Below are positions 40,795-56,829 of a DNA stretch of 60,995 nucleotides, piece by piece. The position numbers and the translations under genes are program-made. Below the pieces are notes generated by a model. It did not search any database and had not been told where the DNA came from. It saw nothing but the letters and a program-made list of their open reading frames with translations. The stretch spans positions 1-60,995 of the forward strand of contig JAGYMU010000004.1 of the NCBI GenBank assembly GCA_018399995.1, given 5' to 3'. Source of the DNA: Halanaerobiales bacterium (GTDB lineage: Bacteria > Bacillota > Halanaerobiia > Halanaerobiales > M55B127). Within the stretch, counting starts at the first letter, position 1, and each line of letters begins with the position of its first letter.

Positions 40795-40849
40795 AAAGCT
40801 AATAATTAATTTATATTTTATAATGATTGTTTTACTATGGAGGGTAATT

Positions 40850-41476
40850 ATGTTTGAATTACAAAATGTAGTAGTTAAAAACATTTTAACAATAGACTAT
40901 CTGAAAATTAATGAGGGTGAGATTACCTGCATTATAGGAAGAAGTGGTGGAGGGAAAACTACTTTTTTGAAACTTTTAAATAATATGAAAAGCAAAGATG
41001 AGGGTGAGATAAGATATAAAAATAGGAAGATAGAATCATATGATCCTGTTCAATTAAGAAGGGAAGTTTTGATGATGGCACAAAATCCGGTGATTTTTTC
41101 TAAAACTATCCGAGATAATTTTGTAAAAACATTGGAGTATAATAACCAAGCGGAATTTTCTGATCAAAAATATTTAAGGATATTAAATAAAGTGGGATTA
41201 AAAGAAAAAAAACTAGAAGAGAGTGCAGATAAATTATCTGGAGGAGAGAAGCAGAGGCTTGCTTTAGCCCGTATATTAATTTTAGATCCTTATATATTAC
41301 TCTTAGACGAACCCTCTTCAGCTTTAGATAGTGAAACAGAAGAATTAATTATTGATATGGTAGTTAATTGTATTAAAGAAAAAGAGGCTACTTTAATTAT
41401 GGTTACTCATTCTAAAAAAATTGCAGAAAAATATGGAGATCATATAATTACAATCAATCACGGTGAAATTAGATAA
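40850..41476 (+). CDS. fetA: ABC ATPase, FetA/YbbL-like
   Basis: GRSGGGKTT, LSGGEKQR, LLDEPSSALD; start at ATG 40850 after GGAGG. Confidence 0.82.
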   Translation: MFELQNVVVKNILTIDYLKINEGEITCIIGRSGGGKTTFLKLLNNMKSKDEGEIRYKNRKIESYDPVQLRREVLMMAQNPVIFSKTIRDNFVKTLEYNNQAEFSDQKYLRILNKVGLKEKKLEESADKLSGGEKQRLALARILILDPYILLLDEPSSALDSETEELIIDMVVNCIKEKEATLIMVTHSKKIAEKYGDHIITINHGEIR

Positions 41477-41496
41477 AATATTGATGAGGAGAGATT

Positions 41497-42285
41497 TTGA
41501 TGAAAGATATAATATTTGACATTTCTCTTATTAATTTAGTTACGGCATATATCTTTGTTTTATTATTGCTCTTAATTGTAAAAAAAGAGAGAATAGGGCG
41601 TGAAAAACAAATATTAATTGCTTCTTTTAGGATGACAGTTCAATTAGTATTAGTCGGCTATCTATTGACCTATGTATTTCAAAATCCTAATCCCTTCATT
41701 ACCTTAATTATAATTTTGTTTATGGAGCTATTTGCTATCTATAATATTTATGCCAGGGTAGAAAGTACATTGTCAAAAAATTTAAAGGTGGTGATAGGAC
41801 TTTCCATGTTGATTGGAACAGTTATTAGTATTTTGTTTTTTCTTTTCATCGTAATAAATATTGACCCCTGGTTTATGCCACAGTACTTCATACCAATTTC
41901 GGGAATGTTAATTGGTAATTCTATGACAGGCATATCTTTGGGGGCCCAGGGTTTAATAAATGGCATGAAAGATAGTAAAGAGAAGATAGAAAATTCTCTC
42001 ATGTTGGGTGCTACTCCTCATCAAGCTACGAAGGATATCCAAAATAGATCTTTTTACAATGCAGTATTGCCTACAATTAATTCCATGATTGGAATGGGAA
42101 TTGTTTTTTTGCCGGGTATGATGACAGGACAAATCCTAGCAGGGGCCGCTCCATTAACAGCTATTAAATACCAGATTGTAGTTATGCTGGGCATTTTGGG
42201 AAGTGTTACTCTAACGGTATATTTAATGGTTAAATGGGGTAGAAAAAGTTTTTTTAATAGCCGGGCACAGATCGAAATTAGTTGA
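41497..42285 (+). CDS. fetB: FetB/YbbM (UPF0014) permease
   Basis: RMTVQLVLVGY, IPISGMLIGNSM, GIVFLPGMMTGQILAG. Confidence 0.88.
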   Translation: MMKDIIFDISLINLVTAYIFVLLLLLIVKKERIGREKQILIASFRMTVQLVLVGYLLTYVFQNPNPFITLIIILFMELFAIYNIYARVESTLSKNLKVVIGLSMLIGTVISILFFLFIVINIDPWFMPQYFIPISGMLIGNSMTGISLGAQGLINGMKDSKEKIENSLMLGATPHQATKDIQNRSFYNAVLPTINSMIGMGIVFLPGMMTGQILAGAAPLTAIKYQIVVMLGILGSVTLTVYLMVKWGRKSFFNSRAQIEIS

Positions 42286-42464: not shown

Positions 42465-42531
42465 TATGTTGTTGAGCAAAAAAAAACAAGTAAGATGCTC
42501 AATAAGAAATTTTTAGGAGGAATAAATTTTA

Positions 42532-42735
42532 ATGACTTACACAGGAACAGTAAAATGGTTTGATGAGAAAAAAGGTTATGGTTTTATTGAGAGAGAAGAT
42601 GGAGACGATGTATTTGTTCACTTTTCAGCTATCCAGGATGATGGTTTTAAGACATTGAATGAAGATCAGGAAGTAGAATTTGAAATCGTGGAAGGCGACC
42701 GCGGCCTACAGGCTGAAAATGTTGTTAAATTATAA
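42532..42735 (+). CDS. cspA: Cold-shock protein
   Basis: [21 protein letters not shown]. Confidence 0.95.
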
Positions 42736-42760
42736 TATATTATTATAAGATATAGCAACT

Positions 42761-42790
42761 AATCCCGACCGGTTAAAGGTCGGGTTTTTT
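42761..42790 (+). terminator. Terminator of the cold-shock gene
   Basis: CCCGACC-GGTTAAA-GGTCGGG-TTTTTT. Confidence 0.85.
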
Positions 42791-42811
42791 AATTTACATT
42801 AAATATGAAAT

Positions 42812-42845
42812 GAGAAGCCTACTAATTAAATTTAGTAGGCTTCTC
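42812..42845 (-). terminator. Terminator of the thiolase gene
   Basis: GAGAAGCCTACTAA...TTAGTAGGCTTCTC 14-bp stem. Confidence 0.75.
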
Positions 42846-42871: not shown

Positions 42872-44053
42872 TTAAAGAGTTTCTACAAGAGTAGTAACTC
42901 CCATTCCACCACCAACACATAATGAAGCTAATCCTCTTTTAAGTTCTCTTTTTTCCATTTCATATAGTAAGGTTACTAATATTCTGGCTCCACTGGCACC
43001 GATAGGATGTCCTAAAGAAATCGCTCCGCCATTTACATTGACAATTTCAGAATCAAAAGGCAGTTCTTTTAGAACTGATAACGATTGAGCAGCAAAAGCT
43101 TCATTGAGCTCAACTAACTGAATATCTTCAAAACCCCAGTTACTTTTTGCAAGGGCTTTTTTAACAGATGGTACTGGAGCAATACCCATAATTTTTGGAT
43201 CGACTGCAGCTGTTGCATATGAAACAACTCTGGCCAGGGGTTTTACCCCTAATTCATCAGCTTTTTCTTTGCTCATTACTAAAAGAGCAGCAGCCCCATC
43301 ATTAATACCGGAAGCATTACCTGCTGTCACTGTGCCATCTTTTTTAAAAGCGGGTCTAAGTTTGGATAAAGAATCAGCAGTGACGCCTTTACGAGGAAAC
43401 TCATCCTGTTTGAATAATTTTGGTTCACCTTTTCTTTGTGGTATCTCTACAGGTACTATCTCATCTTGGAAACGCTTATTTTTTATGGCATTTATTGCTT
43501 TTTGCTGACTTTGAGCAGCAAATTCATCCTGTTTTTGTCTGTTTATATTATATTTTTCTGCTAAATTTTCAGCTGTAATGCCCATGTGGTATTCATTTAC
43601 AGCACAGGTGAGTCCATCTCTAATCATGGAGTCCACAACTTTACCGTCTCCCATTTTATATCCATAACGTGCTTTTTCTAAAAGATAGGGAGCTCTACTC
43701 ATGCTTTCCATACCACCAGCCACAACAACATCTGTATCACCCAATAATATTTCTTGGACGGCAAGATTAACTGATTTAAGTCCAGAACCACATAGTTTGT
43801 TAATAGACATAGCTGGAATTTTTACATCTAAACCTGCTTTAATTGAAGCCTGACGGGCTGGGTTTTGTCCTTGTCCTGCTTGTAATACAATACCCATAAT
43901 AACATTATCAACTACATCTGGATCTACATCTGCTCTCTCGATAACTGTCTTAATAACTTTAGTTCCCAGGTCAACAACTGGAATGTCTTTTAAACCTTTA
44001 CCAAAAGAACCAATTGCAGTTCTTGTTGCACTAGCTATAACAACTTCTCGCAA
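42872..44053 (-). CDS. thlA: Acetyl-CoA acetyltransferase (thiolase)
   Basis: [29 protein letters not shown]. Confidence 0.95.
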
Positions 44054-44095
44054 AAGAATCCCTCCTATATATTTATGTAATCTTTACTTACTATA

Positions 44096-44139
44096 AGTTT
44101 AATAAATAAGTGTTACCTTTAAGTTACAATTGAGTTGCA
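44096..44139 (-). promoter_or_regulatory. Thiolase promoter with three 11-bp-phased repeats
   Basis: Minus strand TGCAAC-N5-TGTAAC-N5-GGTAAC-N10-TAAACT. Confidence 0.75.
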
Positions 44140-44269
44140 ATGTTTTAAAATGATAGTATTATCCACAAATTAATCTAATAATATTTGTTGTTAATATTGG
44201 ACTCTCAATAAGAAATATGTCTTATTTTTTTAAATTTTGCTTGTATAATAAATGATTTGTTTATATTAT

Positions 44270-44298
44270 AGAGGATTTTAAATTGATTTATTGAATTT
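44270..44298 (+). promoter_or_regulatory. SigH-like promoter of the STAND/BTAD regulator
   Basis: AGAGGATTT-N11-ATTGAATTT. Confidence 0.55.
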
Positions 44299-44336
44299 AT
44301 CTTTAACAAGACTTAAAAGAACAGAGGGGTGTAAAA

Positions 44337-47300
44337 GTGTTTGGAAATGTAGTGGTTAAAACTAAATTTCTTCCACAATATTATAAAAGCAAAATATTTT
44401 CTAGAGATGATTTAAAAACCATCGTAAATAAAACTGCTCAGTATCCAGTTTCTATGGTTAAAGCAGGACCTGGTTATGGGAAAAGTGCTTTTTTGACAAA
44501 TGGATTTAAAAATAAGGATTATGTTTTTTGGTATAATGTAAGTACTGGTGATGGGAATGTTTTAACCTTTTTAATTAATTTAATTTATAGTTTTAATACT
44601 ATGGATCCAGAAATAGGTGAAAAGACTTTAAATTTATTAAAAGAAAAGGGAGAAACTAATCAGGAGTGGACACCTGTTTTAAATGCTTTAATTAATGAAA
44701 TTTGGGATAAATATAGATATAAAGAATTATATTTAATAATAGATGACTATCATTTATTAAATAACCAAGCTAAGACGAATAGATTGATTGAACATTTTAT
44801 TGAAAACAGGCCGCCCAATATGCACTTTATTATATCAACCAGAAAAGTCCCAGATATTCACGCTTTAAGTGTTTGGAGGGTTAAAGATCAGATATTAGAA
44901 ATTGATGAAGATGATCTAAAATTAAGTAGAGACGAAATAGAGATTTTTTACAATAAGCATTATGATTATGATCTAAATGATCAAGATCTATCATTAATAT
45001 ATGATTTAACAGAGGGCTGGATTATAGGGGTTGAGATGATAAGACAGAGTATTAAAGAAGGCAATAGTTTAAATCATATTAAGGAACAATCAATGCTCTC
45101 TTTAGAACATCTTTTTAATTATCTAGCTAGCGAAATACTATCTAAACAAAATGAAGAGATAAGAAAATTTTTAATTAAGACTTCTATTTTAAGGGTTTTG
45201 ATTCCCGATGTTTGTAATTTTATACGTGATAAAGATAATAGCGAACAGATATTAAAGTATTTAGTGAAAAATGATCTATTTATTATTCAACTCGATGACC
45301 AAAAATACAGATATCACCATTTATTTCATGATTTTTTGAAAGAACATGCCAAAAAAGAGGTCAAAAATATTGCCCTTCTTCAAAAAGATATAGCCCGCTA
45401 TTTTAAAGAAAACAAACAATATGAAGAAGCGGTTTACCATAATATGGAGAGTGGAGATTACTTTTCCGCCGCACAAATAATTAAAGAAAGAGCTAATAAA
45501 TTATTAACTTCAGGGCGTTTTACAACTTACAATAACTGGTTTGATAAACTTCCGGAAAGAATTATAGAAAATTTCCCCTATTTATACTTGTATAAAGGTG
45601 ACATTGATCGTTTTACATGTAATTATAATCAGGCTTTGGAGTGGTATAATCAGGGCAGAAAGTATTTAAAAAAGCAGAGTGATAACAAAGGAATAAGTGT
45701 GTCTTACCAGAAAATGGCTATGATTTATTTAGATACTGTACAGCCTACTAAAGCAGATAAATATTTAAAAAAGGCTTTGGAACTTAGGGAAAAAGAAAAT
45801 TATTGGGAAGAATCTGTTTTGCTTCGTTTGGTTGCTGAAAATTATTTAAATAGGGGTAATGTCGAAAAAGCTAAAGAAATGCATGGCAAATTAAAGAAAC
45901 TAGACCAGGAAAATACCAGTTATATTCTAGATTCCAGAGTTAAAATTAGAACGGGTAGATTAAAGGAAGCCGAGGAATTATTAGAAGAAGAATTAAAAAA
46001 AGAAGGACTCGTTGATGAAAATAAGGTGGGTAGAGCACACCGCGAAACCATTCTTTTACTTTCTCTGATTGCCTCATTTAAGGGTGATGTAAAAAAAGCT
46101 TTAGAATATGCGAAGATAGGATTGGAAAAATCAAAAAGTTTAGAGTCTTTATTTACCCAGGCAGTTGCCTATATGAGGTTAGGACATGCCTATCAAATTA
46201 ATGGTGAACATTATCAAATGAAAGCAATTCAATCATATGAAAAAAGTTTGGAAATTGTTGATAAGTTAAAAGTTAATAGGGGGCGAGCTGAGGCACTCTG
46301 GGGGTTAACTTTAGTTAATGGTAATTTAGGTTATGAAGAGCAGATGAAAAAATATGGACAGGAAGGTGTCAAAATATGTGAAGAAGCTGGAGATGAATGG
46401 TTGAATTCTTTGATTAAACTTTCTTTGGGTATAGGTTATCATTTTCTAAAAAAATATAAGTTGTCTATAAAGTGGTTAACAGAAGCTGTGAAGTCGTATG
46501 ATTATTGTAATGATATATTTGGTAAGACTATCGGTCAGATATGGCTTACATTAATTGATTGTGAGCTTGGCAATAAGGTTGATTTTAAAAATCGTATCGA
46601 GGAAATTGTTCCTATAATCAAGGAAAATAATATGGAGTTTGTTTTTAAGAAAGTCAATTTAGTAGGTCCACGTGATAAAACAACTTTGATACCTATTTTA
46701 ACAAAGGGTTATAATTTAGATATTGAAAAACAATTTTGTAAATTGATACTTGAGGATTTAGATATTGAGCCAGGCATCAAACATCCCGGTTACAGTTTAA
46801 AAATCAAAACATTAGGTAGGTTTAGCTTGTTAAGAGGGAGAACAGAGATAAAGGATAGTGATTGGAAAAGAAAAAAGGCCAGGACCTTATTTAAAATATT
46901 CTTAACTTATCAAGATGAGTTAATATCAAAAGAAAAACTGGCAGAAATGATCTCTTCTAAAAAAGACAAGAAGACTGCAATTAGGGATTTCAAAGTTGCT
47001 TTAAATGCTTTAAATAATGTTTTGGAACCTAAGAGAGAAGCCCGGGCTACTCCTTTTTTTATCAGAAAAAAAGGAGCTCTTTATGGCTTAAATCCAGATG
47101 CTTCTTACAGTATAGATGTCAATGAATTTGAGTATCTGATTAAAGAAGGTATAAATCAAAAAAACCAAAATAATAGTAATGAGGCTATAGATTATTTTGA
47201 GCGTGCGGATAATCTTTATAATGGAAATTATTTGCCTAACTGTATGTATAAGGATTGGTCCAGAGAAGTCAGAGAAAAGTATAAGCAGCTGTTTATTCAG

Positions 47301-47564
47301 GGTTTAGAACTTTTGGCTGAACTTTACTATGATATGGGGAATTATCATAAAACAATTGAAACAGCAGAAAAACTTATTTCTAAAGAGTCTTCAGTAGAAG
47401 AGGCATATCAGTTAATTATGAAAGCATATAATAAATTAGGTCAACGTACTCAAGCAATTCACACTTACCAACGCTGTGTTAACAATCTAGAAAAAGAGTT
47501 GGGAGTTATTCCAACCCAAAAATCTGTGGAATTATATAAAAAAATTAAGTCAGAACAAAAATAA
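44337..47564 (+). CDS. MalT-like STAND ATPase + TPR + winged-helix/BTAD (SARP-like) transcriptional activator
   Basis: AGPGYGKS, LIIDDYH, TEGW, YRYHHLF; TPR-like helices; C-terminal IKTLGRF..WKRKKARTL and BTAD (IDVNEF, EEAYQLIMKAY, ELGVIP). Confidence 0.9.
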   Translation: MFGNVVVKTKFLPQYYKSKIFSRDDLKTIVNKTAQYPVSMVKAGPGYGKSAFLTNGFKNKDYVFWYNVSTGDGNVLTFLINLIYSFNTMDPEIGEKTLNLLKEKGETNQEWTPVLNALINEIWDKYRYKELYLIIDDYHLLNNQAKTNRLIEHFIENRPPNMHFIISTRKVPDIHALSVWRVKDQILEIDEDDLKLSRDEIEIFYNKHYDYDLNDQDLSLIYDLTEGWIIGVEMIRQSIKEGNSLNHIKEQSMLSLEHLFNYLASEILSKQNEEIRKFLIKTSILRVLIPDVCNFIRDKDNSEQILKYLVKNDLFIIQLDDQKYRYHHLFHDFLKEHAKKEVKNIALLQKDIARYFKENKQYEEAVYHNMESGDYFSAAQIIKERANKLLTSGRFTTYNNWFDKLPERIIENFPYLYLYKGDIDRFTCNYNQALEWYNQGRKYLKKQSDNKGISVSYQKMAMIYLDTVQPTKADKYLKKALELREKENYWEESVLLRLVAENYLNRGNVEKAKEMHGKLKKLDQENTSYILDSRVKIRTGRLKEAEELLEEELKKEGLVDENKVGRAHRETILLLSLIASFKGDVKKALEYAKIGLEKSKSLESLFTQAVAYMRLGHAYQINGEHYQMKAIQSYEKSLEIVDKLKVNRGRAEALWGLTLVNGNLGYEEQMKKYGQEGVKICEEAGDEWLNSLIKLSLGIGYHFLKKYKLSIKWLTEAVKSYDYCNDIFGKTIGQIWLTLIDCELGNKVDFKNRIEEIVPIIKENNMEFVFKKVNLVGPRDKTTLIPILTKGYNLDIEKQFCKLILEDLDIEPGIKHPGYSLKIKTLGRFSLLRGRTEIKDSDWKRKKARTLFKIFLTYQDELISKEKLAEMISSKKDKKTAIRDFKVALNALNNVLEPKREARATPFFIRKKGALYGLNPDASYSIDVNEFEYLIKEGINQKNQNNSNEAIDYFERADNLYNGNYLPNCMYKDWSREVREKYKQLFIQGLELLAELYYDMGNYHKTIETAEKLISKESSVEEAYQLIMKAYNKLGQRTQAIHTYQRCVNNLEKELGVIPTQKSVELYKKIKSEQK

Positions 47565-47657
47565 GAGTTTTAAAAAAAGGCTTTTAAGTTTTGTTTTTCT
47601 TTGAAGATCAAACAAATTTTTGAATGAAAATAGATTCATTTTTATAATTATCAAATG

Positions 47658-47733
47658 GGTTTCACCTCTTTTTGTGAGTAAATTTTTGTTTTCTGTTAAC
47701 AAAAATTAGCAAAAATAGGCGGAACCTTTTTTT
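47658..47733 (+). terminator. Long imperfect hairpin with T7 tail downstream of the regulator
   Basis: GGTTTCACCTCTTTTTG...AATTTTTGTT-loop-AACAAAAATT...CAAAAATAGGCGGAACC-TTTTTTT. Confidence 0.55.
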
Positions 47734-47845
47734 GTTATCAATACTGTTAAATTAGGATTAACTTCTTATGAAATATCTTAGTTATTTATACAAAATATGG
47801 AACACATGTCTTTGATATTATGAAAATCTATTAATGGTAAATCAT

Positions 47846-47878
47846 TGCAACTGTTTTGTAACTTTATTTTATTATAAT
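47846..47878 (+). promoter_or_regulatory. Upstream promoter P1 of the KAS III-like operon
   Basis: TGCAAC-N5-TGTAAC-TTTATTTTAT-TATAAT. Confidence 0.72.
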
Positions 47879-47923
47879 TAAGACAGGCAGATATTTGCTA
47901 TTTGTTTTATTGAGTTAATTATT

Positions 47924-47967
47924 TGTAACTGCAATGCAACATCTTAGTAACTTTATTTTATTATAAT
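47924..47967 (+). promoter_or_regulatory. Downstream promoter P2 of the KAS III-like operon
   Basis: TGTAAC-N5-TGCAAC-N5-AGTAAC-TTTATTTTAT-TATAAT. Confidence 0.78.
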
Positions 47968-47999
47968 GTAAATACAAAGATATCAATGGGGGTGAAGAG

Positions 48000-49010
48000 G
48001 TGCAAGAAAATGTAGGGATACTTTCGACCGGTGTTTATATACCGAACAATTATATGGATAGTAAAGAACTAGCTGAAAAAACTGACATACCAGAAGATGT
48101 AATCAGAGAAAAGTTTGGTATAAAGAAAAAACCCATTCCCGGTGAAAATGATCATACTTGTGCAATGGGAATCAAGGCTGCTAATACTGCGATAAGAAAA
48201 GCAGATATTGATCCTAATGACATCGATCTAGTTATCTGGGCAGGGGCAGAACATAAAGAATATCCAATGTGGACTGCTTCTATCAAATTACAGTATGAAA
48301 TTGGCGCTAAAAAAGCGTGGGCTTTTGACATAGCTCTCAGGTGTGGGACCATGATAATGGCGATGAAAGTTGCCAAAGATATGCTATTATCTAATGATAA
48401 TATGGATACAGTTTTAATTGGATCTGGTTATAGAAATGGTGATTTAATAGATTTTGATAATCCTAGAGTATCATTTATGTATAATCTGGGAGCAGGTGGA
48501 ACAGCCGTTATACTTAAAAAAGGTCTTAATAAAAACATAGTTCTGTCTGCAACTGCAGAAACTGATGGATCTCTCTCAGAAACTGTTGTAGTGCCAGCTG
48601 GAGGTACAAAAAAAGAGCTGACAGCTGAAGGTTTAAAAAACAATGAAAACCATTTAGATGTTATAGATAGTGAATATATGAAAGAAAGGCTTAATGAAGT
48701 TTCACTGGAAAATTTTGTAGGGGTTGTAAAGGATTCTGTTAAAAATAGTGGATATAAAATGAACGATGTAGACTATATTGCAATTCTTCATATGAAGTAT
48801 TCAGCTCACAAGTTTATGTTAGATCAACTGGGTTTAACAGAAGAACAAAGTATTTATCTAAATGAATATGGTCATATAGGTCAAAATGATCAGATAATAT
48901 CTTTAGAATTAGCTTTAAATAAAGGTAAAGTGAAGACGGGAGACCTCGTTGTTTTTGTTAGCGCGGGTATTGGTTATGCCTGGAATGCGCTTACCATTAA
49001 ATGGGGATAG
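48000..49010 (+). CDS. KAS III (FabH)-fold protein with non-canonical active site
   Basis: AFDIALRCG (catalytic Cys), ILHMK, YGHIGQND in place of GNT, AGIGYAW. Confidence 0.85.
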   Translation: MQENVGILSTGVYIPNNYMDSKELAEKTDIPEDVIREKFGIKKKPIPGENDHTCAMGIKAANTAIRKADIDPNDIDLVIWAGAEHKEYPMWTASIKLQYEIGAKKAWAFDIALRCGTMIMAMKVAKDMLLSNDNMDTVLIGSGYRNGDLIDFDNPRVSFMYNLGAGGTAVILKKGLNKNIVLSATAETDGSLSETVVVPAGGTKKELTAEGLKNNENHLDVIDSEYMKERLNEVSLENFVGVVKDSVKNSGYKMNDVDYIAILHMKYSAHKFMLDQLGLTEEQSIYLNEYGHIGQNDQIISLELALNKGKVKTGDLVVFVSAGIGYAWNALTIKWG

Positions 49011-49044
49011 TAAATTTGAAGAATTTAAAAATGGAGGTTTTATT

Positions 49045-49785
49045 ATGAGATTAAAGGATAAGGTTGCAATCATTACAGGTGCTGGAAGTGGTCTGGGAAG
49101 AGCAGGTGCTTTAAGATTTGCAGAAGAGGGTGCAAAAGTAGTTATTGCAGATTATGATAATAAAGCAGGCCAAGAGGTAGAAAAAGAGATTAAAGAGGCT
49201 GGAGGAGAAGCCTGTTTTGTAGAAGTTGATGTATCTAACTGGCAGCAGGTAGAGGATATGGTAGATAAAACAATTGAAAAATATGAAACAGTTGACATAT
49301 TAATTAATAATGCAGGTGTGACTCAGGATTCATTTTTAGTAAAAATGTCTCAAGAACAGTGGGATACAGTTATAGATATAAATCTAAAAGGTGTATTTAA
49401 TTGTACAAAAGCAGTGGCCTCTCTAATGATGGATAAAGGTGAGGGTAAAATTATTAATACCTCTTCTGTTGTAGGTGAGCAAGGTAATGTAGGACAAACT
49501 AATTATTCAGCTACAAAAGCAGGTGTTATTGGAATGACCAAGACCTGGGCAAAAGAGCTTGGTTCTAAAGGTATTAATGTTAATGCAGTAGCTCCAGGTT
49601 ATATAATGACAGAAATGGTCGCAAAAGTTCCTGATAAAATTTTAGAAAAACTCAAAAGCAAAGTACCATTTGGTAAGTTAGGAGAACCAGAAGATATCGC
49701 AAATGCTTATCTATATCTTGCTTCTTCTGAATCAGATTACTGTAATGGAACAATATTAGATGTCAATGGAGGCATTAGTTTATAA
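49045..49785 (+). CDS. FabG/PhaB-like short-chain dehydrogenase (3-oxoacyl-CoA reductase family)
   Basis: TGAGSGLG, ADYD, NNAG, GQTNYSATK, VAPGYI; start at ATG 49045 after GGAGG. Confidence 0.9.
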   Translation: MRLKDKVAIITGAGSGLGRAGALRFAEEGAKVVIADYDNKAGQEVEKEIKEAGGEACFVEVDVSNWQQVEDMVDKTIEKYETVDILINNAGVTQDSFLVKMSQEQWDTVIDINLKGVFNCTKAVASLMMDKGEGKIINTSSVVGEQGNVGQTNYSATKAGVIGMTKTWAKELGSKGINVNAVAPGYIMTEMVAKVPDKILEKLKSKVPFGKLGEPEDIANAYLYLASSESDYCNGTILDVNGGISL

Positions 49786-49812
49786 TATTGAATTCTGAAA
49801 GGAGGAGGATTA

Positions 49813-51105
49813 ATGGATTTCCAAGAACTATATAAACAGAAATTAATTACAATGCCAGAAGCAGTTTCAAAAGTAAAATCCAACCAAAAAGTATGTACAG
49901 CCATGGCTGCTTCAGAGCCGCAGGGTCTTTTAACTGAACTTGGCAAACACAAAAGTGATTTAGAAAATGTTAATGTAGTTTCCTGTTTAATGATGGGAAA
50001 TTACGAGTTCTTAAAACCCGAAATGAAAGGACATTTTCTAAATGAGACCTGGTTTTATGGTCCCGGTGATAGAGCCAATCACAAACATGGCAATGTGACA
50101 TATATTCCAAATAATCTACACGAAGCGGGCAAGATCAAAATAGAAAATGATAATATCAATATATTTTGGGGTACAGCCACCTCAATGGATAAAAATGGAT
50201 TTTTCTCACTTTCTTTAGGTTTAACATATGAAAAACAGATGGTTGAAAATATTGATGTAGTCATGTTAGAGATTAATGAAAATTTACCCTGGACCTTAGG
50301 TGATACGCAGGTTCATATCTCAGATGTGGATTTTGTGGTAGAAAATAATGCACCATTGATTGAGCTACCCTATATAGAGCCGGGTGAAGTAGAAGAACAG
50401 ATTGGCCAAAATGTTGCGAGTCTAATTGAGGACGGATCAACACTTCAGCTTGGTATTGGAGGAATTCCCAATGCTATTGCTCACCATCTTGATGATAAAA
50501 AGGACCTTGGTATCCATACCGAAATGTTTACAGATGGAATGGTTGATCTTTTTAGAAAAGGCATTATAACAAATAAGAAGAAGACGATTTGGAAGGGTAA
50601 AATGGTGGGTACATTTGCCCTTGGTACTCAAAAACTTTATGACTTTATTGATAAGAATTTAGCTGTAGAGTTCCAACAGGGTAAAGTCACTAATGATCCC
50701 TATATACTTGGTCAAAATAATAAGATGGTCAGTATAAATACTGCCTTACAGGTTGATGTTACCGGTCAGGTCTGTTCAGAAGCGATTGGCAATAAACATT
50801 ACAGTGGGACCGGTGGACAGGTCGATACACATCGAGGTGCCCAGAGATCACCCGGAGGTAAGGGGATTATTGCATTAAGGTCAACAGCTAAAGACGGAAA
50901 ATATTCAACAATATTAGCACAACTACCGATAGGTTCTAAAATAACACTTGGTAGAAATGATATAGACTATATAGTTACAGAATATGGAGTAGCCCATTTA
51001 AAAGGGAAAAGTATAAGAGATAGGGTGGATGAGTTAATTAGTATAGCCCACCCGGATTTTAGAGATGAAATAAGGAGAAAAGCTCAGGAGTTGAAGATCT
51101 GGTAA
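49813..51105 (+). CDS. 4-hydroxybutyrate/butyrate:acetyl-CoA CoA-transferase family (Cat2/AbfT-like)
   Basis: ASEP, LQLGIGGIP, HTEMF (catalytic Glu), SGTGGQVD, VTEYG. Confidence 0.9.
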   Translation: MDFQELYKQKLITMPEAVSKVKSNQKVCTAMAASEPQGLLTELGKHKSDLENVNVVSCLMMGNYEFLKPEMKGHFLNETWFYGPGDRANHKHGNVTYIPNNLHEAGKIKIENDNINIFWGTATSMDKNGFFSLSLGLTYEKQMVENIDVVMLEINENLPWTLGDTQVHISDVDFVVENNAPLIELPYIEPGEVEEQIGQNVASLIEDGSTLQLGIGGIPNAIAHHLDDKKDLGIHTEMFTDGMVDLFRKGIITNKKKTIWKGKMVGTFALGTQKLYDFIDKNLAVEFQQGKVTNDPYILGQNNKMVSINTALQVDVTGQVCSEAIGNKHYSGTGGQVDTHRGAQRSPGGKGIIALRSTAKDGKYSTILAQLPIGSKITLGRNDIDYIVTEYGVAHLKGKSIRDRVDELISIAHPDFRDEIRRKAQELKIW

Positions 51106-51212
51106 TGATTATTTTGAAAGGATGTGATATAGAATATTAATTAATTACATTTTAGTAAAATAATTTTTGAAGAGTGAAAATTGTAATAATAAAAATTAAG
51201 GGGGATAAAAAA

Positions 51213-52454
51213 TTGAAGAGAAATAGTATTTTAATTTTTTCATTGGTTGTTATCTTAGCCTTTGCTTTTAGTTTGAGTTCATATGCCCAAGATGATCCAA
51301 TTAAAATTGGTGCTGTTAATCCGTTAGGAGATATTACAGGTGATCAATCTACGAAAGCAATGGAGTTAGCTGTTAAAGAAATTAATGACAATGGTGGGTT
51401 ACTGGGTAGACCGGTTGAACTTATTGTAGTAGATAGTGAATTTAAACCTGAAAAAGGTGCTGCAGCAATTGATAAACTTGCTACAGTAGATGAGGTAGAC
51501 TTTTTTGTTGGTGGTATGTCAAGTGGTGTTCACCAGGCTCAAATACCTAGTTTGAAAAAATATAAAAAAATTACTATATGGGCAGGAGCAGCTTCCTATC
51601 TTGCAGAAGAGGCAATAGGGCCAGATGCAGATTGGTATTTTCACTTACACCCCTGGGATTATCAACAGGGAGAAAGTTATGGAATAGGTTGGTCAGATAT
51701 AGCTGAAGCAAGAGAAGAAGTAGAAATTGGCAAGGTATTTTTAGCTTATGAAGAAGGCGGTTTTGGAACAGCTTCTTTTGAATCATATGAAGTTTTAGCT
51801 GATCAAGCTGATGAAGGTGAAGGACCTTATGCTGACATATTATCAGATTTCGAAGGTGGTTCCTTTAAAAGTGCAGCACTAGGTGGAGGCGAATACCGTG
51901 CTCTATTACGTAGGGCTAAAGAATTTGATCCAGATCTATTTATCTGGGCAGGATATGCTGCAGATGCAATACCATTGTTAGCACAATCCAGAGAAGTCGG
52001 TTTTGAACCACCATTATATGTAGGAGCTCCTCCAGGATGGCCTGCTGATTTTGAAGCTAATCCTTTATCAGATAAGGTAGTTCTATATGGTATGTGGGCA
52101 CCTGCATTAAAAGAAGTAAGTGAAGTTGCTGAACATTTCTGGGATGGATATATCAAAATGCATCAGGAAAGACCCGCAACTTACTTTGCCCCATTAGGTT
52201 ATACTAATATTATGTATCTGGCAAAAGCCATTGAAAATGCTGGTACATTAGAAAAAGAAGCCTTAATTGAGTCTTTAGAAAATACAGAATATGACTCACC
52301 ACTGGGGACTACTCTTAAAATTGCACCGAGTAATGTTATCAAACATCAAGGTTTTACAAGACAAAAGATATTACAGTATCAGGATGGTCAACAACATGTA
52401 ATCTGGCCATTTGAAGTATCAACAGCTGAACTAGAATATCCCTTTTCCTGGTAA
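51213..52454 (+). CDS. LIV/HAAT-family ABC substrate-binding protein
   Basis: Signal peptide, IKIG, INDNGGLLGRPVEL, QYQDG...IWP; start at TTG 51213. Confidence 0.88.
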   Translation: MKRNSILIFSLVVILAFAFSLSSYAQDDPIKIGAVNPLGDITGDQSTKAMELAVKEINDNGGLLGRPVELIVVDSEFKPEKGAAAIDKLATVDEVDFFVGGMSSGVHQAQIPSLKKYKKITIWAGAASYLAEEAIGPDADWYFHLHPWDYQQGESYGIGWSDIAEAREEVEIGKVFLAYEEGGFGTASFESYEVLADQADEGEGPYADILSDFEGGSFKSAALGGGEYRALLRRAKEFDPDLFIWAGYAADAIPLLAQSREVGFEPPLYVGAPPGWPADFEANPLSDKVVLYGMWAPALKEVSEVAEHFWDGYIKMHQERPATYFAPLGYTNIMYLAKAIENAGTLEKEALIESLENTEYDSPLGTTLKIAPSNVIKHQGFTRQKILQYQDGQQHVIWPFEVSTAELEYPFSW

Positions 52455-52464
52455 ATAGACTAAA

Positions 52465-52499
52465 AACAGCCGGGTTATAATATACCCGGCTGTTATTTT
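52465..52499 (+). terminator. Stem-loop after the substrate-binding gene (partial terminator or mRNA stabiliser)
   Basis: AACAGCCGGGT...ACCCGGCTGTT. Confidence 0.7.
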
Positions 52500-52530
52500 A
52501 AAAAAAATATTAAATGGATGGAGGGGAAAA

Positions 52531-53454
52531 ATGTCATTTTCTCTTAATAAATCATATAAGGTATTATTATTATTAGTAATATTTATAGTAATTATTGGCT
52601 TTTGGAATCCTAATGCATTACTCGATGGACTCCAGAGAGGCAGCTTATATTCATTAATAGCACTGCCTTTAGCTTTAGTTTTGGGAATATTAGGGGTTTT
52701 AAATCTTGCACATGGAGAATTCTTGACAGTGGGTTTATACTTTATATTTATGCTAAATAACAGATTTAATTTAGATCCCCTGGTTGCTATTATCCCGACC
52801 GTTATATTTTTACTTATATTAGGAGCTATTATTTATTGGTTGACGATAAAAAGAGTTGTAAAAGAGGGACATTTAAGTCAACTTCTATTAACCTTTGGTA
52901 TATCCTTAATTTTAATTGAAACGATAAATATATTTTGGACTTCAATGGCAAGAAATACTTATACGAGTTATTCATATGCATCAATGGAAGTTGGTGGATT
53001 TAGGTTTGGTACTTATGAACTTCTATATATATTAATTGCAGTTTTAGTTTTGGTAGGTTTACAATTATTTTTGAAAAAAACTCGTTTAGGTCAGGCTACT
53101 TTTGCAGTGGGTCAAAATCCTAAGGGGGCTAAAATAGTAGGTATTAATGTAAATTATGTTTATTTATTTGTTTTTAGTGTTGCTGTAGCAATACTGGGTA
53201 TTGTAGCAGGAGCAATGCTGCCCAGAACAGCGATATTTCCTGAAGTAGGCTCTCCCTTCACACTTAAGTCATTTGCTCTGGCTGCTATGGCAGGTATGGG
53301 TAATTTAAATGGTATATTATTTGCAGGAGTAACTCTTGGAATAGGAGAAGCTGTAATTAATTCAATACCTAATTATGGCGGTTGGTCTGATATCGTATTT
53401 TTTGGAGTACTGATTATAGTCATTATATCACGATCATATCGGGGGGCTAGATAA
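52531..53454 (+). CDS. livH: LivH-like ABC permease
   Basis: VLNLAHGEF, KTRLG, GINV. Confidence 0.85.
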   Translation: MSFSLNKSYKVLLLLVIFIVIIGFWNPNALLDGLQRGSLYSLIALPLALVLGILGVLNLAHGEFLTVGLYFIFMLNNRFNLDPLVAIIPTVIFLLILGAIIYWLTIKRVVKEGHLSQLLLTFGISLILIETINIFWTSMARNTYTSYSYASMEVGGFRFGTYELLYILIAVLVLVGLQLFLKKTRLGQATFAVGQNPKGAKIVGINVNYVYLFVFSVAVAILGIVAGAMLPRTAIFPEVGSPFTLKSFALAAMAGMGNLNGILFAGVTLGIGEAVINSIPNYGGWSDIVFFGVLIIVIISRSYRGAR

Positions 53455-54407
53455 TGAGAAAAAACTTAATTATATTATTATTATTAATAATTGCACTTAC
53501 TCTGCCCTTATATACAGGTGTTTATATTTTGCATATCTTCAGTTCAATATTAATATTTTTAGCATTGAGTTTAAGCTGGGATATGATGTTAAGAACAGGT
53601 CAACTTTCCTTTGGAACTGCAGGATTTTTTGGTTTGGGAGCATATGCTTCTGTTTTGATCGTTGTTAAAATGGGTTTTAATCCGATTTTAAGCCTGTTAA
53701 TAGGAGCGATATTTTCGGGCCTCATAGCTTTTATTTTAGGGTTCATAGTTTTAAGATTAAGAGAAATATACTTTGCAATTACCACCCTGGCTTTAACCCA
53801 TGTATTTTCTGTAATTATCAGGAATTTTTCTGATTTTACGGGTGGAGCAAGTGGAACAATATTAGCTAATGCAATTTTCGAAGGAGATCCAGTTAAGATA
53901 TATTATCTGATTCTTATAGTTGCAGTTTTAGTTATAATAATTTCTGAAGTCTTTAAAAGAAGTAGGATCCACTATGCTATAAATGCAATTCGTAATGATG
54001 AAATTACGGCTAAGTCCAGTGGTATAAACGTATTTAAATACTTATTATTTGTATTTGTAGTTACTTCAGCCATACAGGGTTTGGTGGGAGCTGTTTATGC
54101 TCATCAATATGCTTTTGTTAATCCTGAAAGCACATTTTCACTTAACTTCTTATTGCTTCCCATTGCCATGGCTTTAGTAGGAGGAATATACAGTACAAAC
54201 GGTCCAATTATTGGAGCATTACTTTTAGGTTTAATTTCAGAGTACTTAAAATTAATTATGCCCTATGGTCACTTGATAGTATATGGATTAATTATTGTTT
54301 TTGTTGTCCTATTTCTCCCTAGAGGGATTTATAGTACAATCCATAATAAGTTGTTAAAGAGTAATATCATTGGGGGGGATAAAAATGCCAATACTGCAAG
54401 CAAATAA
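53454..54407 (+). CDS. livM: LivM-like ABC permease
   Basis: TGQLSFG, LRLREIYFAITTLA, AIRNDE, GPIIGA, LPRGI. Confidence 0.85.
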   Translation: MRKNLIILLLLIIALTLPLYTGVYILHIFSSILIFLALSLSWDMMLRTGQLSFGTAGFFGLGAYASVLIVVKMGFNPILSLLIGAIFSGLIAFILGFIVLRLREIYFAITTLALTHVFSVIIRNFSDFTGGASGTILANAIFEGDPVKIYYLILIVAVLVIIISEVFKRSRIHYAINAIRNDEITAKSSGINVFKYLLFVFVVTSAIQGLVGAVYAHQYAFVNPESTFSLNFLLLPIAMALVGGIYSTNGPIIGALLLGLISEYLKLIMPYGHLIVYGLIIVFVVLFLPRGIYSTIHNKLLKSNIIGGDKNANTASK

Positions 54408-55101
54408 TATATTAAGGAAATTCGGTGGTTTAGTTGCTGTAAATGATTTAAGTTTTAGCATGGAAAAAGGTGAGATACTGGGCATTATTGGCCCCAATGG
54501 TGCTGGAAAAACTACAGTGATAAACTTAATGGCGGGCACCTTAGGAGTTAATAAAGGAACAATAGAATTTAAAGATGAGGATATTACTAAAAATGCTGCC
54601 TATATTAGAAACAGGAAAGGTATTGCAAGAACTTTTCAAATTGTAAGACCGCTTGAGAACTTTACTGCAATTGAAAATATTATGGTGGGGGCTCTTTTTG
54701 GTAAAGGTGATAAATTAAATGAAGCCCGCTCATCTGCCCAAAATATATGTAATTTGTTAAATATTAAAAATGTAAATAAGCATGTTGATGAATTAACTGT
54801 TTTAGAGCTGAAAAAAGTTGAATTAGGTAGAGCGCTGGCCGCAGATCCAGAAGTTCTCTTTTTAGATGAAATAATGGCTGGCTTAACCAGTGATGAAACC
54901 TGGGAGTTAATTGATATAGTAAAATCTTTACAAAAAAAAGATATAGCTATAAGTGTAGTAGAGCATATTATGAAAGTAGTTAAAGAATTAACAGATAGAG
55001 TTATAGTATTGAACAAAGGACAAATAATAGCTCAAGGACCTTATGAGGAAGTATCCGAAAACAAAGAAGTAATAGCAGCTTACCTGGGGGAGGAAGAGTA
55101 A
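54385..55101 (+). CDS. livG: LivG-like ABC ATPase
   Basis: FGGLVAV, GPNGAGKTT, GIARTFQ, LDE, VEH, AYLG. Confidence 0.88.
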   Translation: MPILQANNILRKFGGLVAVNDLSFSMEKGEILGIIGPNGAGKTTVINLMAGTLGVNKGTIEFKDEDITKNAAYIRNRKGIARTFQIVRPLENFTAIENIMVGALFGKGDKLNEARSSAQNICNLLNIKNVNKHVDELTVLELKKVELGRALAADPEVLFLDEIMAGLTSDETWELIDIVKSLQKKDIAISVVEHIMKVVKELTDRVIVLNKGQIIAQGPYEEVSENKEVIAAYLGEEE

Positions 55102-55102
55102 T

Positions 55103-55810
55103 ATGCTTGAGATCAACAATTTAAATGTCTCATATGGTAAAATTCAGGTGATTTGGGACTTATCTATGGAAATAAAAGAAAATGAAGCAGTCGGTATTTT
55201 TGGTCCCAATGGGGCCGGCAAAAGTACTTTGATAAATGCAATTATTGGTCTGGTAAAAAACAAAGAAGGTAGTATTAAGTTTAATGAAGAGAAAATAATT
55301 GGCTTAGAAACTCATCAGATAATAAAAAAAGGAATAGCTTTAGTACCCCAAAAAAGAGAACTTTTTCCCATTATGACTGTCAAAGAAAATCTTAAATTAG
55401 GCGCAGCATATATTCCGGAAGCACGTGGTGAAATAAAGCAAAATCTAGAGTTTGTCTATAATATTTTTCCTATTCTTAAAGAAAGAGAGAAGCAACTTGC
55501 TGGTACTATGAGCGGAGGTCAGCAAAGGATGTTAGCAGTGGGTAGAGCTTTAATGTCAAGCCCGAAACTACTCATACTTGATGAACCTTCTGTAGGATTA
55601 CAACCCTCATTGGTGACAGACCTGTTCAAAAAATTGAATGAAATAAAAAAAGAGGATGTTTCGATATTATTAGCTGAACAAAACGTAAAACAGGGATTAA
55701 AGGTTATCGATAGGGGTTATGTATTAGAAAATGGCAAAATAGAGTTAGAAGATGATGCAGAGAACTTGACAAAAAATGAACATATACAAAAATCTTATTT
55801 GGGCATCTAA
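55103..55810 (+). CDS. livF: LivF-like ABC ATPase
   Basis: GPNGAGKST, AGTMSGGQQRML, LDEPSVGL, EQN, YLG. Confidence 0.88.
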   Translation: MLEINNLNVSYGKIQVIWDLSMEIKENEAVGIFGPNGAGKSTLINAIIGLVKNKEGSIKFNEEKIIGLETHQIIKKGIALVPQKRELFPIMTVKENLKLGAAYIPEARGEIKQNLEFVYNIFPILKEREKQLAGTMSGGQQRMLAVGRALMSSPKLLILDEPSVGLQPSLVTDLFKKLNEIKKEDVSILLAEQNVKQGLKVIDRGYVLENGKIELEDDAENLTKNEHIQKSYLGI

Positions 55811-55827
55811 TTTTATTAAAGAAAGGA

Positions 55828-56829
55828 GTGTTCTATTTGGGTGTTAAATTATTAGCAACCGGTTCTTATGCTCCGGATAATACTTATAGTATTGAAGATA
55901 TGAGTGAAATTGTGGGAGAAGATATAAGTGATTTTATGGAGCCATTGGGTATTAAACAGAGGAATATGACTGAATCAGAGATGAGTTCTGCTGATTTAGC
56001 TGTCCAGGCCGGGAAAAGGGCACTAGAGAAATCCGGTCTTTCAGCTAAAGATCTAGATCTATTGATATTATCTACAGATACTCCGGATATCATATCTCCC
56101 CAGAGCTCAGCCATTGTAGCAAATGATTTGGGAATGAGGGACGGTGCTACTTTTTTTGATTTAAATGGTTCTTGTACTGGATTTGTTTTTGCAACAGAGA
56201 CCGCTAAAAATTGGATAGAAGGTAATTCGGATTATGAAACTGTGATGGTGATTTCTACTTATAATATGACTAAATATGCAGATATGAAGAGAGGTAAATT
56301 TTTCTGTGTGTTTTCAGATGGAGCCGGAGCAGCCATTTATAAAAAAGACGAAGAAAAAAAGGGTGTATTATCTTCACACTTTATAGGGAATGGAGATCAG
56401 TGGATGACACTGGGGATTTATGTAGGAGGAACACGTTTTCCCGCTACAGAAAAGAGGATTCAAGGCAACGGTGAGGTTCAACCTAATTTGACTTTTTGGA
56501 AAGGTGAATTGATGAACCGTAATCCAGAACTGTGGCCTGTTATCATAGAGAAAATGCTTGATAAAAGTGATTATCAATTAGAAGATATTGACAAATTTAT
56601 TTTTACACAGATCAATAAATCAGCTATTGCATTAACCTGCGAAAATTTAGGTATAGAGATGGAAAAGACACATAATGTTATGGACAAATACGGTTATACA
56701 GGTAATGCATGTATTATTATGGCATTGAATGATGCCTTAGAAAAAAAAGAGGTAAAAGAAGGGGATTTAGTTTGTCTTACAGCTTCTGGAGTGGGCTATA
56801 CAATGGCGACAATATTAATTAGAATATAA
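55828..56829 (+). CDS. Second KAS III (FabH)-fold protein with non-canonical active site (start may be TTG 55837)
   Basis: TGSYAP, FDLNGSCTGF (Cys), FSDGAGA, FTQIN in place of HQAN, YGYTG in place of GNT. Confidence 0.85.
   Translation: MFYLGVKLLATGSYAPDNTYSIEDMSEIVGEDISDFMEPLGIKQRNMTESEMSSADLAVQAGKRALEKSGLSAKDLDLLILSTDTPDIISPQSSAIVANDLGMRDGATFFDLNGSCTGFVFATETAKNWIEGNSDYETVMVISTYNMTKYADMKRGKFFCVFSDGAGAAIYKKDEEKKGVLSSHFIGNGDQWMTLGIYVGGTRFPATEKRIQGNGEVQPNLTFWKGELMNRNPELWPVIIEKMLDKSDYQLEDIDKFIFTQINKSAIALTCENLGIEMEKTHNVMDKYGYTGNACIIMALNDALEKKEVKEGDLVCLTASGVGYTMATILIRI

Follow-up and report, generated by a model that had tools for sequence, protein, structure and literature searches.

SARP-family activators recognise direct repeats whose spacing is 11 or 22 bp; the 3' repeat lies 8 bp from the -10 element (PMC10936776), and the array overlaps the -35 region (PMC10936776, PMC7040171). 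Such sites have also been described as heptamers with 4-bp spacers located 8 bp upstream of the -10 box (PMC7040171), and several contain three heptamers, with PimR additionally using 10-bp units (PMC10972967). At the afs promoter, the afs box comprises two 11-bp repeats spanning -40 to -19, the first 8 bp of each being contacted by one protomer of a side-by-side dimer, and the poor -35 box is bypassed through 'sigma adaptation' (PMC10936776). SARPs are said to occur exclusively in actinomycetes, where they are tied to secondary-metabolite clusters (PMC7040171). Here we describe a 60,995-bp stretch of DNA from a Halanaerobiales genome (hereinafter the window), in which a thiolase promoter and two tandem promoters, P1 and P2, of an operon carry TGYAACT direct repeats. 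We predict with good confidence that these repeats are the operator of the adjacent 1075-residue regulator, a putative one-component activator. Comparisons across related genomes point to a real and conserved SARP-style activator site and regulon lying outside the Actinobacteria.

Among the described systems, AfsR of Streptomyces coelicolor (a large SARP; PDB 8hvr, 8k60, 8jke) resembles the regulator in combining a SARP domain with a STAND-type NTPase and TPRs, and is the best structural and profile match of its C-terminal domain; the AfsR site is comparable to those in the window, with two 11-bp direct repeats over the -35 region of a promoter whose -35 box is poor (PMC10936776). However, AfsR has the order SARP, NB-ARC NOD (nucleotide-binding oligomerization domain), TPR, which is reversed in the regulator to NTPase, TPR, SARP; furthermore, the NTPase of the regulator is MalT-like, its host belongs to the Halanaerobiales, its targets belong to primary metabolism, and the repeat sequence TGYAACT is new relative to the AfsR sites. 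The small, cluster-situated SARPs (ActII-ORF4, DnrI, RedD and FdmR1) have comparable sites, namely heptameric repeats with 4-bp spacers, often three in number, 8 bp separating the 3' copy from the -10 box (PMC7040171, PMC10972967), but they consist of the SARP domain alone in fewer than 400 residues, lack a sensor and act in the antibiotic clusters of actinomycetes. The PimR-type SARP-LAL proteins unite a SARP domain with a LAL-type ATPase and TPRs and bind three heptamers with 4-nt spacers, a secondary PimR site having 10-bp units (PMC10972967), comparable to the distal P1 repeat described below, which is offset by 10 bp; they differ in their N-terminal SARP domain, their Streptomyces host and, for PimR, a site lying clear of the -35 box. 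MalT of E. coli and the LAL proteins share with the regulator an N-terminal MalT-homologous ATPase, a helical-repeat (TPR) sensor and a C-terminal DNA-binding output, the layout of the one-component, inducer- and ATP-dependent type. Their output, however, is a LuxR-type helix-turn-helix, in place of which the regulator has a SARP winged helix and BTA domain. Finally, the pho boxes bound by the PhoB/OmpR proteins are similar in that a winged helix occupies 11-bp repeats that stand in for the -35 element some 10 bp ahead of the -10 box; unlike these proteins, the regulator lacks a receiver domain and possesses a BTA domain.

The regulator and its DNA-binding domain are located as follows.

44337..47564, plus strand: regulator, 1075 residues, composed of a STAND P-loop NTPase of the MalT type, a region of TPRs and, at the C-terminus, a SARP domain (Pfam, NCBIfam)
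46731..47561, plus strand: SARP domain, an OmpR-type winged helix and then a BTA domain, forming the last 277 residues (profile, AlphaFold2 and Foldseek)

Pfam matches the regulator with NPHP3_N (residues 20-169), TPR_12, TPR_MalT and BTAD (residues 926-1070, E 1.4e-24), with no NB-ARC or LuxR/GerE match and no score for Trans_reg_C either. The NCBIfam MalT model PRK04841 aligns its positions 3-525 to regulator residues 7-527 (E 8.9e-72), albeit at 242 bits, under the equivalog cut-off of 537, and the sequence displays the Walker A motif GPGYGKS and the Walker B motif LIIDD. A domain profile (A1) built from 20 sequences recovered AfsR (8hvr_I) with an E-value of 2.6e-22, profile positions 29-282 aligning to chain positions 42-284 and thus to the full SARP domain, and EmbR (2fez) with an E-value of 1.8e-14, again across the whole SARP domain. 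An AlphaFold2 model of the C-terminal domain (pLDDT 93.6, pTM 0.87) shows an N-terminal sheet, three helices, a wing hairpin and a helical bundle in that order, and in a Foldseek search against the PDB its top six matches were EmbR and chains of AfsR taken from structures of transcription initiation complexes (TMq 0.74-0.77; TMt 0.80-0.83 where the match is AfsR). Judged by these profile and model comparisons, the C-terminal end of the regulator is a genuine SARP domain, and Pfam, profile, AlphaFold2 and Foldseek all uphold an earlier reading of the window from its letters alone (the sequence-only reading), which had credited the adjacent activator with a winged helix and a BTAD. As is usual for SARPs, the winged helix is followed directly by the BTA/BTAD domain; in contrast to the N-terminal position usual for SARPs, the domain occupies the last ~277 of the 1075 residues. 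Thus, by sequence and model, the protein is best described as a MalT-like sensor with a C-terminal SARP output.

This architecture is common yet unnamed: 448 of the 7999 candidates scored reach E <= 1e-3, and a search with only the C-terminal domain gives 25,041 representatives at the same threshold. The homologues listed are mostly 1018-1169 residues long, come from Bacillota (Bacillus, Paenibacillus, Ammoniphilus and Symbiobacteriaceae) and Chloroflexota, and are annotated as 'BTAD domain-containing putative transcriptional regulator' or as MalT/SARP.

The three promoters comprise the following elements.

44112..44138, minus strand: thiolase promoter repeats with a period of 11 bp, GCAAC at 44138-44134, GTAAC at 44127-44123 and GTAAC at 44116-44112, read from the sequence
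44096..44101, minus strand: thiolase promoter -10 box TAAACT (44101-44096), 10 nt past the last repeat, read from the sequence
47837..47862, plus strand: P1 repeats, a degenerate GTAAA at 47837-47841, GCAAC at 47847-47851 and GTAAC at 47858-47862
47873..47878, plus strand: P1 -10 box TATAAT, 10 nt past the GTAAC at 47858-47862
47925..47951, plus strand: P2 repeats with a period of 11 bp, GTAAC at 47925-47929, GCAAC at 47936-47940 and GTAAC at 47947-47951
47962..47967, plus strand: P2 -10 box TATAAT, 10 nt past the GTAAC at 47947-47951
47988-47995, plus strand: ribosome-binding site GGGGGTGA, downstream of P2 and ahead of the GTG start at 48000

P1 and P2 lie downstream of the regulator gene and before the operon. 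Direct reading, together with the chance test given below, confirms the central claim of the sequence-only reading, that three promoters share GYAAC repeats phased at 11 bp and ending 10 nt before the -10 box, although its coordinates for the P1 and P2 repeats were one base low and mark the base before each pentamer. That base is T in 4/5 cases at P1 and P2, and the conserved unit is better described as TGYAACT than as GYAAC. The distal, degenerate GTAAA copy of P1 is separated from the next repeat by a step of 10 bp, not 11. That the repeats occupy the -35 region likewise held up: neither a -35 box at spacers of 16-18 nt nor a TG-extended -10 is present at any of the three promoters, the best -35 matches being 2/6 at P1, 1/6 at P2 and 3/6 at the thiolase promoter, and a plain sigma-70 scan lists none of them. 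An Rfam scan of 43900-48200 returned no match at E <= 1, and therefore the long intergenic region is not explained by a known leader RNA or riboswitch.

A further TATAAT at 44244-44249 on the plus strand, about 90 nt ahead of the GTG start of the regulator and not listed by the sigma-70 scan either, is not preceded by GYAAC repeats. It is a candidate for a constitutive promoter driving the regulator gene, in which case there would be no sign of autoregulation through the motif.

The arrangement of the sequence at all three promoters agrees with the SARP site geometry (PMC10936776, PMC7040171), as the sequence-only reading had proposed: the repeat unit is 7 + 4 = 11 bp, and the gap from the proximal heptamer to the -10 box is 8 bp when the heptamer is framed as GYAACnn and 9 bp when it is framed as TGYAACT. 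Assuming a +1 position 7 nt past the -10 box, the proximal unit would fall at -28 to -22 and the middle unit at -39 to -33, each no more than one base off the stretches that are contacted in the afs box (-29 to -22 and -40 to -33). The likeness ends with the biological context: SARPs are described from actinomycetes and secondary metabolism (PMC7040171), whereas here the host is one of the Halanaerobiales and the target genes encode a thiolase, a short-chain dehydrogenase/reductase (SDR), a CoA-transferase and an ABC importer. The regulator thus departs from SARPs in two features, the N-terminal position of the domain and the actinomycete and antibiotic context, and nevertheless appears to work like one.

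The same spacing bears on the idea that TGTAAC/TGAAAC is the -35 element of an alternative sigma factor of the extracytoplasmic function (ECF) type. The Bacillus sigma-X and sigma-W -35 boxes do resemble TGTAAC and TGAAAC, which is what recommends it. However, the gaps from these hexamers to the -10 box are 10 and 21 nt, where 16-18 nt would be expected, two or three copies of the element follow one another in phase, the -10 boxes (TATAAT) are of the sigma-A kind, and the annotated neighbourhoods show no sigma factor gene. We consider this explanation highly improbable and reject it on spacing and conservation.

The pattern GYAAC-N6-GYAAC (GYAACNNNNNNGYAAC) has 5 matches in the window, every one of them within the three promoters, against a chance expectation of 0.07 (standard deviation 0.26), and none of 100 shuffles reached 5. 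In the whole assembly (2,186,992 bp, 2.19 Mb, in 235 contigs, 32% GC and 80% complete) it has 7 matches, 5 in the three promoters and the remaining two in apparent coding sequence. When at most one mismatch was allowed and a -10 box demanded, the assembly gave 12 matches versus 9 in the reversed sequence, and we therefore recognise no regulon member beyond the three promoters in this genome; the zero-mismatch matches are the three promoters only, so that the genome scan suggested by the sequence-only reading returned exact repeats with a -10 box nowhere else. The genome's own homologue of a polyhydroxyalkanoate (PHA) depolymerase (contig C167, 56% identical to that of locus L039) lacks the repeats upstream.

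P1 and P2 arose by duplication of a 52-nt segment, the copies being 77% identical and lying 89 bp apart, and the DNA is AT-rich (32% GC), both of which would suit a chance pattern or a functionless remnant of local duplication. Against this stand the shuffles, the thiolase site, which has the same form and is independent of the P1/P2 duplication, and the persistence of the pattern across genera and in genomes of 59-64% GC. We accordingly reject this explanation, too, on spacing and conservation: it is very unlikely on the comparative data, and we give it almost no weight.

Conservation was followed outward from the genus. The sites are present, wherever the contig extends to them, in five loci from Halanaerobiales metagenome-assembled genomes whose regulators are 76-96% identical and, at the level of the genus as a whole, in 12/12 loci, the regulator being found in 11 of the 12 other genomes of the genus. 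The sequence-only reading had named the absence of the motif from orthologous clusters as what would overturn it, and the genus loci retain the motif upstream of these clusters. When the distinct sequences (11 for P1, 11 for P2 and 8 for the thiolase promoter) are aligned on the -10 box, the pentamers and the T's flanking them on either side are invariant in all, and the mean information is 1.3-1.5 bits in the between-repeat columns compared with 0.7-0.9 bits in the upstream columns. TATAAT is seen in all 11 distinct P1 sequences. The -10 box of the thiolase promoter varies among the relatives (TAAACT, TACAAT and TAAAAT) and always lies 10 nt after the last repeat. The distal copy of P1 is an exact GTAAC in four loci (L011, L012, L014 and L015), which keep the 10-bp step. 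P1 and P2 are separated by 89 bp in 2 loci but by 86 bp in 9 others, and therefore the two promoters are not in strict helical phase. In loci L004 (8122-8276) and L008 (1-155) the sequence past the P1 repeats, close to the contig end, is unrelated to that of the other loci, and an insertion or an assembly break could have deleted the P1 -10 box and P2. Several relatives at 76% identity have an extra open reading frame (ORF) of 165 residues between the thiolase and the regulator (L001, 5267-5764, minus strand), with no Pfam match at E <= 1e-5.

Beyond the genus, strict matches occur in the 1.5-kb flanks of 6/18 more distant loci of the order. In a widened context, 7/10 order-level loci, with regulators 33-39% identical, carry arrays of GTAAC or GAAAC in two or three copies with an 11-bp period, 9-11 nt ahead of TAnnnT, often as back-to-back divergent promoters; the sites of L041 and two of the three of L036 have one mismatch. 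Behind these sites lie genes for an alpha/beta hydrolase, a KASIII-like enzyme, an SDR, a CoA-transferase, a Liv-type importer and a thiolase, the hydrolase matching the NCBIfam model NF050089 for an intracellular short-chain-length PHA depolymerase (426 bits versus a cut-off of 300). The sites may also be unlinked to the regulator: G004 has a three-repeat site before the hydrolase gene on a contig (C120) other than that of the regulator, and G036, again on a different contig (C10), has an operon of KASIII-like and CoA-transferase genes with a second site before the binding-protein gene. That the thiolase, hydrolase, SDR and CoA-transferase genes of distant relatives share the repeats, even when unlinked to the regulator, bears out the earlier proposal that the thiolase and the operon form one regulon.

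Three other genera have extra GTAAC x2 sites inside the gene run (L036 at 4376, L037 at 3177 and 6396, L047 at 5505), which precede an ABC binding-protein or KASIII-like gene; no such site exists in the window, where the spacer between the CoA-transferase and binding-protein genes lacks an internal site, unlike in G004, G002 and G036. A three-repeat array just after the CoA-enzyme-activase gene in G046:C8 was set aside, being without a -10 box.

In a phylum sample of 301 genomes, 15 have a regulator homologue at E <= 1e-100, providing 13 new loci. In 7 of these, with regulators only 32-34% identical and 59-64% GC, repeats directly follow the regulator gene, as TGTAAC x3 or as GTAAC/GCAAC/GYAAC with an 11-bp period, 9-10 nt ahead of TAnnnT, and the genes behind them encode an SDR, a CoA-transferase, a thiolase or a hydrolase.

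The co-occurrence of regulator and motif was examined in all 72 genomes of the order, the pattern being two repeats, 9-11 nt and TAnnnT, with the reversed pattern as control. The 30 genomes with the regulator gave 76 full-pattern matches versus 7 reversed controls, and the 42 without it gave 17 versus 13; the 76 matches include some sites counted doubly and a dispersed GTAACCGTCGGGTAAC element of the g17 genomes. G047, a seeming exception, proved to encode the regulator, which is truncated there at the end of a contig. In the recognition helix, all 14 of 14 site-bearing regulators have F-K-V-x-[LFQ]-N, and the four regulators with F-Y-V or F-S-V are without a site in 4/4 cases, which is suggestive, though no more than that, of the F-K-V helix tracking the TGYAAC motif.

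The GTAACCGTCGGGTAAC-bearing element is a near-identical dispersed sequence with ~17 exact copies in G046, found also in G047, G049 and G051, and is unrelated to the regulon.

A rival explanation holds that the repeats are bound by some other factor, for instance an OmpR/PhoB-type response regulator, the adjacent regulator being merely a neighbour. The OmpR/PhoB winged-helix class uses pho-box-like direct repeats of 11 bp about 10 bp before the -10 box, a geometry common to the whole class, and one genome, G063, retains the site without a full-length regulator. On the other hand, the regulator with its MalT and SARP parts is the only gene common to all site-bearing loci, the annotated neighbourhoods show no response-regulator gene, genomes without the regulator are at the control level (17 versus 13), and the F-K-V helix signature follows the motif. 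We therefore regard binding by another factor as unlikely and favour the adjacent regulator as the predicted binder.

Several observations nevertheless weigh against that preference. Genome G063, of the same genus and 94% complete, keeps a three-repeat site (L051, G063:C5, 3863-4758), and no full-length regulator was found in it; its SARP-domain protein has only 384 residues and is 30% identical. The site precedes a 169-residue ORF matching only the C-terminal part of the alpha/beta hydrolase family, next to a 290-residue acyl-CoA dehydrogenase ORF that is apparently short. This could be a decaying regulon; it is the one observation against a strict link of regulator and site. Four F-K-V regulators and one with L-K-V are without a site in the DNA examined. 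Strict matches are missing from the 1.5-kb flanks of 12/18 more distant order-level loci and of 6/13 phylum loci, one of the latter cut by a contig end, and no array was seen in 3/10 loci of the widened context (L042, L044 and L045). The phyletic counts do not amount to a statistical test because related genomes are not independent, and P1 and P2, as copies of one duplication, are not independent sites. The invariance of the proximal repeats and -10 positions within the genus is partly built in because two proximal repeats and three -10 positions (T, A and the final T) formed part of the pattern by which the sequences were collected; the pattern left free the flanking T's and the distal repeats of both P2 and the thiolase promoter, and these are nonetheless invariant. 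As for the protein, a PDB search with the C-terminal 277 residues as a single sequence returned designed TPR proteins only, and the matches to AfsR and EmbR needed the profile.

What the analysis shows is the sites with their geometry and conservation, the fold of the domain, and the joint occurrence of motif, regulator and gene set over the order and phylum. That the regulator binds, in which direction it acts, where transcription begins and that an inducer takes part are inferred, and we propose the following mechanism. ATP and a small-molecule inducer would presumably switch the regulator on, as they do MalT, with the MalT-like ATPase and TPR sensor controlling the C-terminal SARP domain. 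Two or three SARP domains might then bind side by side, one per 11-bp unit, take the place of the -35 element at promoters where the -10 box is good and the -35 box missing, and recruit or adapt sigma-A RNA polymerase, as solved for AfsR. The targets would be the thiolase promoter and the tandem promoters P1 and P2 of the nine-gene operon. Alternatively, the regulator could bind the same repeats as a repressor that blocks polymerase, or act in both ways depending on the site: the repeats overlap the core promoter, and some related hydrolase promoters carry TGTTATAAT, which is extended-10-like and could fire without an activator. The three window promoters, though, have neither a -35 box nor a TG extension and should be weak alone, the repeats stand in the same register to the -10 box as in the AfsR activation complex, and the characterised SARPs and MalT are activators (PMC10936776, PMC10972967, PMC7040171). 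This makes repression, in whole or part, quite unlikely in our estimation, with activation the preferred outcome.

The genes that the three promoters would control are these.

42872..44053, minus strand: acetyl-CoA C-acetyltransferase (thiolase), 393 residues, TTG start (Pfam Thiolase_N E 3.8e-108, Thiolase_C E 1.3e-47)
48000..49010, plus strand: first gene of the operon, KASIII-like 3-oxoacyl synthase, 336 residues, GTG start (Pfam ACP_syn_III, ACP_syn_III_C)
48949..49785, plus strand: SDR of the 3-oxoacyl/acetoacetyl reductase type (Pfam adh_short_C2 E 2.2e-71; NCBIfam FabG-type equivalogs)
49813..51105, plus strand: CoA-transferase of the acetyl-CoA hydrolase/transferase family (Pfam AcetylCoA_hyd_C E 4e-61)
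51174..55810, plus strand: Liv-type ABC importer with a binding protein, two permeases and two ATPases (Pfam Peripla_BP_6, BPD_transp_2 x2, ABC_tran x2)
55828..56829, plus strand: second KASIII-like gene, last of the same-strand run (Pfam ACP_syn_III, ACP_syn_III_C)

The same-strand run 48000-56829 constitutes the nine-gene operon, the gene after 56829 lying on the opposite strand, and the thiolase and regulator genes are transcribed divergently. NCBIfam assigns the thiolase to TIGR01930 (500.5 bits versus a cut-off of 240.55) and the first KASIII-like gene to PRK06840 (508.9 bits versus 315). The SDR scores 260 bits with AcAcCoA_reduct, under the cut-off; its true start is probably downstream of 48949, since the Pfam match begins at residue 38. 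The nearest NCBIfam model for the CoA-transferase is butyryl-CoA:acetate CoA-transferase, again under the cut-off. As the gene set combines an ABC importer, an esterase, a dehydrogenase, a CoA-transferase and a thiolase, one might guess that esters or acids of the 3-hydroxybutyrate type are imported and degraded to acetyl-CoA, a guess that does not account for the KASIII-like enzymes. The class III/IV PHA synthase model TIGR01836 was over its cut-off in 0/5 genomes, which, as class I synthases were not searched for, gives a weak argument against the regulon serving polyhydroxybutyrate (PHB) synthesis.

The sequence-only reading had spoken of a Firmicute, and the Halanaerobiales host, placed by NCBI in Bacillota, Clostridia, agrees with it. 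A full-text literature search, weak in part and not covering most subscription journals, did not find a SARP/BTAD regulator or regulon in Firmicutes, Clostridia or Bacillus. Taking the order- and phylum-level loci together, we lean slightly towards the view that the MalT sensor with a C-terminal SARP domain defines an uncharacterised class of one-component activators spanning the Bacillota, with look-alikes annotated in Chloroflexota, that uses one operator word, TGYAAC, as direct repeats set in SARP register, and controls one regulon at identities down to ~32%; as part of that view, the regulon would consist of a thiolase, a 3-oxoacyl/3-hydroxyacyl SDR, a CoA-transferase, a PHA-depolymerase-like esterase and an ABC importer. 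If this is true, SARP-type replacement of the -35 element is neither an actinomycete invention nor bound to antibiotic control, and the same mode would also govern the use of carbon derived from ketone bodies or PHB in anaerobes. The window, from a halophilic anaerobe, encodes a MalT-like sensor whose opposite end carries a SARP domain with canonical site geometry, and this domain appears to govern central acyl-CoA metabolism. The conservation of operator word and gene set over families and a range of GC contents provides a testable regulon for a large family of ~1070-residue proteins. Moreover, the gating of a SARP domain by a STAND sensor could be studied here in the simple setting of AT-rich promoters that have two or three repeats and a perfect -10 box but lack a -35 box.

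Eight metatranscriptome runs, available as contigs, contain 12-32% of the sampled words of the window. In the four runs that were aligned, pieces of the thiolase, regulator and operon genes appear at 93-100% likeness, with DNA carry-over possible; these contigs make no transcript starts, ends or strand visible. Contig cover is almost nil over 47594-47843 and present in two runs from 47844 onward, a gap in contigs that proves nothing. In the bin 42500-42833 the contig depth of the four runs is 353-750, because of a 67-residue ORF (42532-42735, plus strand) that we take to be cold-shock-like from GTVKWF...KGYGFI...DVFVH, and much of this depth probably comes from homologues in other organisms. 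Further away, 38902-42285 encodes a DUF4914 protein (630 residues, E 5e-296) and, after it, an ABC ATPase together with a membrane protein of the UPF0014 family, all unrelated to the regulon.

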